DNA of 4,532 nt, from IMG/VR virus record IMGVR_UViG_2711768008_000012; one strand, 5' to 3'. Made by a program: the position numbers and the translations under genes. A model generated the notes under the pieces. The model was given only the letters and a program-made list of their open reading frames with translations. It was not told where the DNA came from and made no database searches. This document shows, piece after piece, positions 822 through 4,532 of the stretch. Each line of letters begins with the position of its first letter. Position 1 is the first letter of the stretch. Origin of the DNA: a virus (Duplodnaviria; Heunggongvirae; Uroviricota; Caudoviricetes).

Positions 822-849
822 ATTCTATCTGCGAAGGTGCGCGAATCAA
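822..849 (-). promoter_or_regulatory. putative sigma70 promoter for the 453..740 gene
   Basis: Minus-strand TTGATT (849..844), 16-nt spacer, TAGAAT (827..822). It sits just past the hok terminator and about 80 nt upstream of the ATG at 740. Confidence 0.35.
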
Positions 850-861
850 ATTCACCGGAAA

Positions 862-912
862 TAAACAACAAAAAACCCGCCGAAACGCTGAGAGATCACA
901 GCGATGGGCGGG
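862..912 (-). terminator. Rho-independent terminator ending the hok transcript
   Basis: Minus-strand RNA forms a GC stem CCCGCC/GGCGGG (plus 876-881 with 906-911) enclosing an inner CGCTG/CAGCG helix, followed directly by UUUUUUGUUGUUUAUUU (plus 870-875 A6 and flanking). The plus orientation lacks a U-tract, so it is unidirectional. Confidence 0.6.
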
Positions 913-916
913 TTAA

Positions 917-933
917 GTGCGGGTGCGTTGAGG
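917..933 (-). promoter_or_regulatory. hok mRNA 3' fold-back (fbi-like) element
   Basis: Plus gtgcgggtgcgttgagg is the near-perfect reverse complement of plus 1304-1319 (cctcaagcacccgcag). On the minus-strand transcript this gives 15 bp of 5'-3' pairing with one bulged C. Confidence 0.45.
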
Positions 934-989
934 ATGCCTGACACATCAGAGGTGGGCGGGGATGGGATCAGCTCCCCGCCCGGTCACTC

Positions 990-1145
990 TTACTTCCTGG
1001 ATTCGTAGTCTACGAAGACAGCGACCTCCGTCTGGCCGGTTCGGATTCGTACCTCACAGAGGTCTTTCCTCGTTACCAGTGCCGTCACTATGACGGTTAA
1101 ACAGATGACGATCAGGGCGATTAACATCGCCTTTTGCTGCTTCAT
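990..1145 (-). CDS. hokD: Hok/Gef-family type I toxin (51 aa), hokD/relF-like
   Basis: Translation MKQQKAMLIALIVICLTVIVTALVTRKDLCEVRIRTGQTEVAVFVDYESRK matches my recollection of E. coli HokD/HokC over the first ~44 residues (single TM helix, conserved RKDLCEV and TEVAVF). ATG at 1145..1143 with AAGGAG 9 nt upstream; TAA stop at 992..990. The 70-aa ORF in the track is an in-frame 5' extension from the ATG at 1202. Confidence 0.85.
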   Translation of the reverse strand: MKQQKAMLIALIVICLTVIVTALVTRKDLCEVRIRTGQTEVAVFVDYESRK

Positions 1146-1303
1146 AGCCTGCTTCTCCTTGCCTTTCGGCATGTAAGAGGCTAACCTACATGTGCAAAGC
1201 ATGAAATTGGCCTCAGATTAATGTTAAGCGTCTTGCCGGACGCGTAATGTTAACTGGGGCTTTTCTCTATCTGCCTTTTGGTGTTCATGCCTGAAGCAGA
1301 TAG

Positions 1304-1319
1304 CCTCAAGCACCCGCAG
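1304..1319 (-). promoter_or_regulatory. hok mRNA 5' element (tac-like) complementary to the 3' end
   Basis: Lies immediately downstream of the predicted transcription start and pairs with 917-933 (see that feature). Confidence 0.45.
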
Positions 1320-1321
1320 TC

Positions 1322-1351
1322 ATTCTACTTACCTCGCCAATATGAAATCAA
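1322..1351 (-). promoter_or_regulatory. putative sigma70 promoter of the hok transcript
   Basis: Minus-strand TTGATT (1351..1346), 18-nt spacer, TAGAAT (1327..1322). Predicted start near 1315, about 170 nt upstream of the hok ATG, giving an mRNA of about 450 nt ending at the terminator at 862-912. Confidence 0.4.
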
Positions 1352-1372: not shown

Positions 1373-2059
1373 TCACTCCTTCTCTTCTTTACCGTAGTGG
1401 AGTTGACCAATTTTGATAAGAGGGCGTCCCTGAGATTTGCGGTGTAGATTGGTATCGCGCAGAGAATACACACAGCCACAATATTCCTGCTGATAGAATT
1501 TTTCGCGCTTGCTGATTTCAATCATACGGGACGAGCCGCCCTGCTTGCGCCAGTTATAATCCCAGTACACCATGCCCGGATAATGCGCGACGGCTCGCCG
1601 CCCACAGTCGTTAACCTGCTGCATATTTTTCCAGCGTGAAATGCCCAGTGAACTGCTGATCACACTGAAACCATTTTCAGCGGCGTACAGCGCTGTCCGC
1701 TCAAAACGCATGTCAAAACACATGGTGCAACGGATCCCTCGTTCGGGCTCCCATTCCATTCCTTTGGCTCGTTCAAACCAGTTGTCTGTGTCGTAATCAG
1801 CATCAATAAACGGCACGCCGTGTTGTTCAGCAAAGCGAATATTCTCATCCTTACGAATTAAATACTCTTTCTGAGGATGAATGTTCGGGTTGTAGAAAAA
1901 GATGGTGTAGTCGATTCCCGAGGCCTGAAGCGCCTCCATCACCTCACCGGAACATGGAGCACAGCAAGAGTGCAGTAGTAGTTTGTTTGCCCCGTTTGGG
2001 AGCTCCAATTTGGGCCGTTTGAAATCAGCAACTGTCATAAATATGTTTATTGGGGTCAT
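1373..2059 (-). CDS. queH: DUF208 / QueH-like protein (epoxyqueuosine reductase family), 228 aa
   Basis: Contains the motifs I associate with QueH/DUF208: [11 protein letters not shown] near the N-terminus, [23 protein letters not shown], and [11 protein letters not shown] near the C-terminus. ATG at 2059..2057 has no obvious Shine-Dalgarno; an internal ATG at residue 8 is an alternative start. Confidence 0.75.
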
Positions 2060-3057: not shown

Positions 3058-3744
3058 CTACTTAACAACCCTCGAATGGCTAACATTCGGACGCCAGCTC
3101 TCCCAGTTAAAATTCACCCAGCGCCCGCCGTNNNNNNNNNNNNNNNNNNNNNNNNNNNNNNNNNNNNNNNNNNNNNNNNNNNNNNNNNNNNNNNNNNNNN
3201 NNNNNNNNNNNNNNNNNNNNNNNNNNNNNNNNNNNNNNNNNNNNNNNNNNNNNNNNNNNNNNNNNNNNNNNNNNNNNNNNNNNNNNNNNNNNNNNNNNNN
3301 NNNNNNNNNNNNNNNNNNNNNNNNNNNNNNNNNNNNNNNNNNNNNNNNNNNNNNNNNNNNNNNNNNNNNNNNNNNNNNNNNGATAGCTGCCGCTAAGTGA
3401 TTCTTCCCGGTACCAGGTTTTCCGCTGAACGCAAAATTTGTACACCCGGTCATCAGTTCATCGGCGATGGATTTCGCCTGGCTTAACGCGTATCGCTGGC
3501 CGTCGTTCTGCACCTGGTAATTCGCAAACGAGCATTTACGGTGCAACGGCTGGATGCCTGAGCGATTCAGAATTTTTTCCACCCGCAACTGGCGATTCAG
3601 GCGGTTGATCTCCTCGCTACGTTTCTGGCCTTCAGCAAGTTGCCACTCGCGCCACTCCGCTACCGTTCTGAATGGGGCGGTTACATGTGGCGGGGTCAGT
3701 CGGCGGATGCGTTCCAGAACGCCGCCTGTCGCAATATTTTTCAT
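3058..3744 (-). CDS. dnaC: DnaC-like replicative helicase loader (AAA+ ATPase), interrupted by the N-run
   Basis: The N-terminal 121 residues align closely with E. coli DnaC as I recall it, up to the Walker A motif (NRSGIQPLHRKCSFANY...FSGKPGTGKNHLAAAI). The C-terminal tail after the gap (RWVNFNWESWRPNVSHSRV) matches the DnaC C-terminus (LWVIFNWDSYRSRV). The central ~84 codons are N (3132-3381). The ATG at 3744 is 6 nt downstream of the upstream gene stop. Confidence 0.85.
   Translation of the reverse strand: MKNIATGGVLERIRRLTPPHVTAPFRTVAEWREWQLAEGQKRSEEINRLNRQLRVEKILNRSGIQPLHRKCSFANYQVQNDGQRYALSQAKSIADELMTGCTNFAFSGKPGTGKNHLAAAIXXXXXXXXXXXXXXXXXXXXXXXXXXXXXXXXXXXXXXXXXXXXXXXXXXXXXXXXXXXXXXXXXXXXXXXXXXXXXXXXXXXXGGRWVNFNWESWRPNVSHSRVVK
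3132..3381. other. 250-nt run of N (assembly gap or masked sequence)
   Basis: Directly visible in the sequence; it lies inside the DnaC-like CDS and its content cannot be assessed. Confidence 0.99.
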
Positions 3745-4427: not shown

Positions 4428-4532
4428 TGAGGTAGCCTGAGTTTAACGGACACTCCTTCCTGAAATAGAATGGCATCAGAAGGAGCTAATAATGAGCAGA
4501 AAAACCCAACGTTACTCTAAAGAGTTCAAAGC
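4428..4532 (+). mobile_element. left end of an IS3-family insertion sequence (IS600-like), continuing past the window
   Basis: Starts with TGAGGTAGCCTGAGTTTAACGGACAC, i.e. a TG terminus and a GGACAC motif about 20 nt in, as in IS3-family inverted repeats. About 64 nt later comes AGGAG then ATG at 4492 encoding MSRKTQRYSKEFK, a typical IS3-family OrfA N-terminus (compare the IS911 KRNFSAEFK pattern). Confidence 0.65.
4492..4532 (+). CDS. IS3-family transposase OrfA, N-terminal fragment (runs off the window)
   Basis: ATG at 4492 with AGGAG 7-8 nt upstream; translation MSRKTQRYSKEFK. Confidence 0.6.
   Translation, partial: MSRKTQRYSKEFK

Follow-up and report, generated by a model that had tools for sequence, protein, structure and literature searches.

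A very probably complete hok/mok/sok type I toxin–antitoxin module, of hokD/hokW subtype, in a fragment of a lambdoid prophage

The hok/mok/sok system of plasmid R1 (parB) is plasmid-borne and acts in post-segregational killing. Related cassettes are found in the Stx2 phages 933W and Sp5 (VT2-Sakai), both inducible phages. In Sp5, growth was arrested when HokW was induced, an effect that SokW made from its own promoter prevented; mitomycin C depleted SokW and increased HokW, in a way that depended on RecA, and deleting the hokW locus halved phage release (PMC8621323). More generally, hok genes are reported to be enriched in prophages (bioRxiv 10.1101/2025.08.07.668861). In Escherichia coli K-12, hokD (relF) lies in the Qin cryptic prophage, where it follows relB-relE in strain MG1655, and hokC/mokC/sokC (gef) is chromosomal, with IS186 immediately downstream.

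We analysed a stretch of viral DNA of 4532 bp (the window), with nearly all of its genes on the minus strand, and detected in it a region that is very probably a complete hok/mok/sok type I toxin–antitoxin module of the hokD/hokW subtype, lying in a fragment of a lambdoid prophage. By sequence homology, every hok/mok/sok element is present and positioned as in the known systems, whereas transcript ends, processing, refolding, toxicity and Sok control of this copy are proposed by analogy with them. The features are as follows.

61–456: fragment of a DUF1367 gene (Pfam; profile positions 1–102 of 198 matched, i.e. the first half alone)
453–740: 95-aa ORF with no Pfam match
866–914, minus strand: putative intrinsic terminator, with outer stem AACCCGCC/GGCGGGUU, inner hairpin and six U
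866–1315, minus strand: predicted full-length hok mRNA of ~450 nt, from G1315 to the U-tract
921–933, minus strand: putative fbi element CCUCAACGCACCC, forming the 3' side of the fold-back helix (one bulged C), 57–69 nt past the stop codon
954–981, minus strand: 3' GC hairpin of 9 bp with a 10-nt loop, between the hok stop and fbi (arms 954–962/973–981)
990–1145, minus strand: hok toxin ORF, 51 aa (Pfam HOK_GEF), with Shine–Dalgarno GGAG at 1158–1155
990–1202, minus strand: mok ORF, 70 aa (from the ORF list), reading in the hok frame to the same stop codon
1159–1187, plus strand: putative sok promoter read from the sequence, -35 TTGCCT (1159–1164), 17-nt spacer, -10 TAACCT (1182–1187)
1194–~1264, plus strand: predicted Sok antisense RNA of ~71 nt, with a 5' tail, a long hairpin and then GGGGCUUUU
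1254–1260, minus strand: ucb, or anti-Shine–Dalgarno box, GCCCCAG, which pairs with the mok Shine–Dalgarno in the predicted closed form
1304–1315, minus strand: putative tac element GGGUGCUUGAGG, forming the 5' side of the fold-back helix and paired with 921–933 in the MFE structure
1322–1351, minus strand: sigma-70-like hok promoter, -35 TTGATT (1351–1346), 18-nt spacer, -10 TAGAAT (1327–1322)
1373–2059: QueH gene (stop codon 1373–1375)

The original prediction of a hok-type toxin ORF agreed with both profile searches. The 51-aa product matches Pfam PF01848 (HOK_GEF) with E = 9.8e-23 (79.9 bits vs a cutoff of 22) and its alignment retains the invariant C15, T25-R26-K27 and L29-C30-E31 that make up the conserved TRK-LCE core, while Rfam family RF01794 (‘sok’) reaches 117 bits (gathering score 59; E = 3.9e-27) over the full model, positions 1–157, at 1315..1140. 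This Rfam match runs in the hok sense and its final three positions coincide with the hok AUG, so the model describes the leader of the hok mRNA and its complement contains Sok. Identity of the protein is 98% to HokW (50/51), 90% to K-12 HokD, 78% to HokC and 45% to R1 Hok. The locus is thus of a known kind and of essentially known sequence, the hokD/hokW type being common among E. coli and Shigella lambdoid prophages: a match to it occurs in 4713 of the 5426 complete E. coli genomes (median 2, maximum 9 matching places per genome), the exact Hok protein occurs in 3093 blocks of a public assembly collection, and a megablast search against phage genomes returned 79 records. Two RefSeq E. coli genomes contain the identical 533 bp, annotated as ‘type I toxin-antitoxin system toxin HokD’.

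Two in-frame ATGs upstream of hok, at 1202 and 1172, had been noted together with the absence of an out-of-frame mok. The ATGs are there and lengthen the hok frame to 70 aa, but mok is not missing: the in-frame ORF is itself mok, preceded by a Shine–Dalgarno sequence (GAGG at 1214–1211, 8 nt upstream of the ATG at 1202). The same layout is found in 933W, where mokW (213 nt) and hokW (156 nt) have the same end coordinate, and in K-12, where mokC (210 nt) is an in-frame extension that shares the hokC stop (16751–16960 vs 16751–16903). The idea that an in-frame mok is a new variant was rejected, as mokW and mokC are likewise in frame. By analogy with these loci, translation of mok and hok may be coupled here as well; the second ATG (1172), a GTG in 933W, is probably irrelevant.

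On the plus strand we predict a cis-encoded antisense RNA, Sok, that overlaps the mok start and has a promoter and terminator of its own. Taken as 75 nt, this RNA folds at -30.2 kcal/mol (z = -4.9) with an unpaired 5' tail that faces the mok start region, and the annotated 933W sokW aligns at 1198–1264 in a local alignment, its start mapping to 1194. The sok promoter was not reported by the consensus promoter scan, in which it falls below threshold because TAACCT matches three of six positions. We accept it on homology to R1 and Sp5 and on published mutagenesis: it is homologous to the TTGCGC-17-TATCCT of an R1-type plasmid, with the R1 sok promoter at the homologous place, and the Sp5 study silenced sokW by mutating the same TAACCT box with primer YO-421 (PMC8621323). 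The Sok/mok-start segment (~1196–1212) departs from hokW at several positions, and the sok -10 is weak by consensus. The earlier reading of this DNA listed no antitoxin; the Sok gene was found at 1194 to ~1264.

Aligned with characterized hok loci, the region is 92% identical in DNA to the stretch of 933W (AF125520) annotated as mokW, hokW and sokW, which also lies in a lambdoid phage genome. This identity begins at the -10 box and ends a few bases past fbi, and the flanks are unrelated, with QueH upstream and a Rem-family ORF downstream in the window, and L0139 and a YgiW-like gene in 933W. Because the identity stops at both cassette edges, the conserved unit is exactly the hok cassette. The 933W and Sp5 loci share with the window locus the 70-aa in-frame mok, the position and -10 box of Sok, and the tac and fbi sequences. 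In 933W, several substitutions distinguish the Sok/mok-start segment, and the ATG at 1172 is a GTG; the 3' GC hairpin differs in both sequence and loop, and 933W runs into the next gene, whereas the window copy has its terminator directly after fbi.

The original prediction described K-12 hokD as a truncated copy behind relBE, which proved accurate: sequence of relE replaces everything beyond ~15 nt upstream of the hokD ATG, and since similarity starts at that point, the K-12 copy is without promoter, tac, ucb, mok and sok. All of these are present in the window, where there is no relBE, and with every regulatory element kept the locus does look self-contained, a clean intact counterpart of the truncated K-12 hokD. 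The 3' regions of the two loci are collinear, with a hairpin, the same fbi sequence (CCTCAACGCACCCGC) and a homologous terminator stem, and both are followed by a Rem-family gene. The K-12 terminator reads CCCGC-TTCG-GCGGG-TTTTT, and the window copy has ~23 nt more in the loop, which form the inner hairpin. The R1 system has the same order as the window locus, namely promoter, tac, ucb, Sok target, mok, hok, GC hairpin, fbi and terminator, though the R1 tac has GGCGC where the window has GGGUGC, with a matching change in fbi. A hairpin of different sequence occupies the same place in 933W, K-12 hokD and R1. The K-12 hokC tac sequence equals that of the window; our tac-probe survey (described below) did not detect a canonical fbi at the usual position in K-12 hokC, and other Escherichia hokC-type loci do have one.

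The promoter expected for the toxin gene is readable as TTGATT-18-TAGAAT and appears in the consensus scan with 9 of 12 matches. We placed the predicted 5' end of the hok mRNA at G1315, 7 nt past the -10 box, from the start of the RF01794 model and the homologous R1 5' end (GGCGCUUGAGG), and its 3' end from the terminator. An earlier start (~1318) was considered, from complementarity that reaches 3–4 bp upstream of G1315; it would leave just 4 nt to the -10 box, so 1315 was kept as the predicted start. The terminator, claimed at 862–912, folds at 866–914 (-22.8 kcal/mol, z = -5.1), with an 8-bp GC-rich outer stem (914–907 with 881–874) and an inner 5-bp hairpin. A consensus terminator scan of 700–1500 reported nothing, because the scanner takes loops of at most 8 nt and the loop here is longer. 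The arms of the 9-bp GC hairpin at 954–981 were found, as described before, to be 100% complementary, and by analogy this hairpin likely stops 3' exonuclease trimming; in R1, function is lost when the final stem-loop of the truncated mRNA is mutated (PMC9841398).

Central to the original prediction was an inverted repeat, 1304–1319 versus 917–933, read as the tac/fbi interaction that links the two ends of the mRNA. The repeat is present, with a core (918–926 vs 1310–1318) that is perfect over 9 nt, and extends by eye to the whole of the claimed segments with one extra base (G927). Since the RF01794 model and the R1 5' end both start at G1315, 1304–1315 alone is likely transcribed, which makes the RNA helix 12 bp with a bulged C. 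The 451-nt RNA (1315 to 865) folds at -191.5 kcal/mol in its MFE structure (z = -8.8 vs shuffles), and the proposed 5'–3' pairing forms in that structure, with nucleotides 1–12 (1315–1304) paired with 933–921 around one bulged C. We then looked for the same pairing across the family, in 80 loci coding for Hok relatives from species-representative genomes, by probing the region past each stop codon with the locus's own 13-nt 5' motif. This 13-nt tac probe replaced unrestricted RNAduplex comparison of long segments, which yielded uninformative whole-length duplexes. In 60 of the 80 loci the best duplex lay 35–80 nt past the stop codon, with the homologous duplex starting 45–60 nt past it. These 60 loci reduce to 30 distinct tac/fbi combinations, among which the tac motif is conserved. 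At tac position 4 the pair is U-A in 7, C-G in 19 and U-G in 3 of the 30 combinations, and at position 12 it is G-C in 20 and A-U in 6, so that both positions show double compensatory changes across the family.

The predicted full-length fold matches the published closed, untranslatable form of the R1 mRNA (PMC9841398). In it the mok AUG is paired just 5' of fbi, and ucb, whose role as anti-Shine–Dalgarno is taken from the R1 model (PMC9841398), is predicted to pair with the mok Shine–Dalgarno through G56-C106, C57-G105, C58-G104 and C60-G102. In the MFE structure of the trimmed RNA (948–1315) the Shine–Dalgarno and ucb stay paired and tac lies in a local hairpin, so the published open form, in which tac pairs with ucb, was not reproduced. 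Forcing tac onto ucb costs ~9 kcal/mol above the MFE in the trimmed RNA versus ~20 kcal/mol in the full-length RNA, which suggests that removal of fbi lowers the barrier to this rearrangement.

The mechanism that we propose is borrowed from the R1 and Sp5 systems and matched here element by element. The hok promoter would yield an mRNA of ~450 nt whose 5' end, tac, is paired with fbi close to the 3' end while the upstream anti-Shine–Dalgarno box holds the mok ribosome-binding site. In this closed mRNA neither mok nor hok would be translated, and Sok would be unable to bind. Slow 3' trimming to the GC hairpin would strip off fbi and let the 5' region refold, whereupon tac would pair with the anti-Shine–Dalgarno box and free mok for both translation and Sok binding. 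Translation of mok would then lead to the membrane-damaging 51-aa Hok, since translation of hok would be coupled to it, unless the short-lived Sok from the opposite strand paired with the mok start region, led to decay of the mRNA and so blocked Hok production. Once Sok was no longer replenished, the stable pool of hok mRNA would kill or lyse the cell.

The locus sits among prophage genes. Upstream, the gene described before as QueH-like has a Pfam E-value of 1.9e-65, and genes for a small zinc-ribbon-like protein and a DUF977 protein were also identified with Pfam. Beyond DUF977, an ORF is broken by a run of N (3132–3381); its counterpart in a matching E. coli genome is ydaV, which encodes an ATP-binding protein. 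There, these genes belong to a lambdoid prophage and are found beside Cro/CI-like regulators, YdaT, the RrrD lysozyme and a holin. Downstream of hok, a neighbour of the same length as the 95-aa ORF (453–740) is precomputed as ‘Rem’ (PF27490) in the public assembly collection. The two ends of the window, 1–107 and 4428–4532, match the two ends of an IS600 copy from a reference E. coli genome at 100% identity, and both stretches (107 and 105 bases) have the same orientation. Judged from these ends, the hok locus sits in a piece of prophage that IS600 has cut on either side, at the ends of the window. The identical allele is found elsewhere in lambdoid prophage remnants variously broken by elements of the IS3, IS1, IS21, IS66 and IS110 families. 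In two of the eight contexts that we read, an IS21-family insertion 34 nt past the hok stop, within the GC hairpin, severs fbi and the terminator, whereas nothing interrupts the window copy up to the end of the terminator. Seven of the eight contexts share, without any difference, the 396 nt that begin 240 nt upstream of the hok ATG and end with the stop codon.

The tac/fbi repeat is short, 12 bp and a bulge, and 9 of 2000 shuffles of the 200 nt downstream of the stop codon gave the 13-nt 5' end an equal or stronger duplex than the real 200 nt, as a chance match with no structural role would allow. We regard such a match as next to impossible here, given that the helix belongs to the MFE structure of the whole transcript, that 60 loci have this pairing equally far past the stop codon, and that it corresponds to the R1 stem established by experiment, with which the family covariation agrees (PMC9841398); the compensatory double changes at two positions effectively refute the chance reading. 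The origin of transcription is a separate matter. The QueH stop at 1373 lies ~20 nt from the -35 box, and the consensus scan found no terminator-like site between it and the hok promoter or 1315, so read-through from the prophage early operon is also likely. It could then be argued that hok has no start of its own, that it is served entirely by transcripts from QueH and the operon upstream, and that the promoter-like hexamers, with just 9 of 12 consensus positions and an 18-nt spacer, are fortuitous. This seems very improbable to us: 933W, whose upstream gene is unrelated, retains the -10 TAGAAT at 7 nt from the conserved 5' end, the RF01794 model starts exactly at G1315, and in R1 the fold-back and later refolding require tac at the extreme 5' end (PMC9841398). 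With the -10 box and its spacing conserved and a fold-back that needs a 5'-terminal tac, transcription of hok from its own start is likely.

The locus might be structurally intact and functionally silent, a relic in a decaying prophage that is weakly transcribed or permanently repressed and has no role in post-segregational killing, phage release or defence. The native hokA, hokB and hokC loci of the chromosome reportedly neither mediate post-segregational killing nor respond to rifampicin (Pedersen and Gerdes 1999, cited by bioRxiv 10.1101/2025.08.07.668861). Prophage genes by the IS600 ends of the window, such as the DUF1367 ORF, look cut, and the IS21-family insertion that removes fbi and the terminator from the same allele elsewhere suggests that loss of regulation is tolerated. 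Moreover, Sp5 and 933W are inducible phages whereas the host element here is an IS600-cut fragment, so the role in phage release described for Sp5 may not apply. Against silence stand the integrity of all regulatory elements and the conservation of the 396 nt across contexts, together with the near-identical HokW, which is toxic and regulated by SokW in its native prophage (PMC8621323), and even the truncated K-12 hokD is transcribed and edited (PMC5630033). We therefore consider a silent relic rather unlikely, though a serious contender, and from structural integrity and the HokW precedent we favour a functional module as the better bet, with activity of this copy inferred by homology. A further suggestion, which we put forward as speculative and doubtful, is that the allele is retained, or acts as an addiction module, in a decaying prophage: the diverged Sok/mok-start segment could insulate it from the Sok RNAs of other hok copies, and an antitoxin specificity of its own would stabilize the remnant and the QueH gene against deletion.

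That the locus is free-standing and possibly active is not a new idea, as RefSeq already names it hokD and the Sp5 copy is an experimentally working type I system (PMC8621323), and the locus itself will not surprise a specialist. Its value lies in annotation. RefSeq marks just the 51-aa hokD coding sequence, to which sok, mok, both promoters, tac/fbi and the terminator can now be added with coordinates. If active within an IS-bounded prophage fragment, the module would also provide a data point on the role of chromosomal and prophage hok loci. The allele is sequence-identical in many IS-riddled prophage remnants that differ in their IS breakpoints.

The hok locus lies in a lambdoid prophage fragment that is bounded at both window ends by pieces of an IS3-family insertion sequence. 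In E. coli FDAARGOS_943, an IS600 copy has ends that are 100% identical to these pieces (1-107 and 4428-4532), which share the same orientation, so the 4.3-kb prophage segment is flanked by two direct IS600 copies. The features of this segment and its flanks discussed here are as follows.

Features of the prophage segment and its IS600 flanks (window positions)
1-107: IS600 left end, with the transposase 3' end and its stop codon at 61-63
822-849, minus strand: second promoter-like site, TTGATT-16-TAGAAT, its hexamers identical to those of the hok promoter
1005-1008, minus strand: Hok Tyr47 codon TAC plus the next G, forming TACG, the motif edited by TadA
1373-2059, minus strand: epoxyqueuosine reductase QueH gene, the immediate upstream neighbour of hok in the prophage
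3132-3381: run of 250 N (masked sequence) interrupting an ORF
4428-4532: IS600 right end, with the orfA start at 4492

The IS600 copies appear to truncate both a DUF1367 ORF (61-456), in which the profile match covers the first half only, and, at the right end, the region of replication genes. In the matching E. coli genome, the counterpart of the ORF interrupted by masked sequence is ydaV, which is annotated as an ATP-binding protein. The junction between QueH and hok is common to E. coli genomes, with the listed matches spanning positions 69-531 of the 533-position query, up to the QueH end, and the phage-borne QueH may function in queuosine modification of tRNA.

Insertion sequences were also found at the hok locus itself in other genomes. 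In two carrying the identical hok allele (loci L088 and L092), an IS21-family element sits within the 3' GC hairpin, ~34 nt past the hok stop codon (locus position ~6190), and parts hok from the fbi element and the terminator. This insertion is similar to the IS elements reported directly downstream of K-12 hokA, hokC, and hokE. Just past the hok terminator in the window, the second promoter-like site lies upstream of a 95-aa ORF (453-740), identified as Rem (PF27490) by the collection's precomputed Pfam hits; the gene order hokD-rem is the same in K-12.

The Rfam family RF01794, named "sok", matched 1140-1315 on the hok-sense strand, with its last positions forming the hok start codon, so its matches mark the hok mRNA leader. 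The Sok gene itself lies on the opposite strand, a point relevant to the interpretation of automated annotations.

Within hok, the TACG site at Tyr47 is contained in a near-palindrome (997-1008/1010-1021). In K-12 hokC, hokD, and hokE, the homologous Tyr has been reported to be edited to Cys (PMC5630033). Such editing could provide a second cysteine affecting Hok toxicity.

Among the Hok relatives from species-representative genomes, several loci almost identical to those of E. coli (L009, L022, L027, and L065-L067) came from assemblies assigned to Veillonella, Acinetobacter, Xanthomonas, Ferruginibacter, Streptomyces, and Oscillibacter. Many lie on very short contigs. The taxa named are most likely not the true hosts but the result of contamination or mis-binning.
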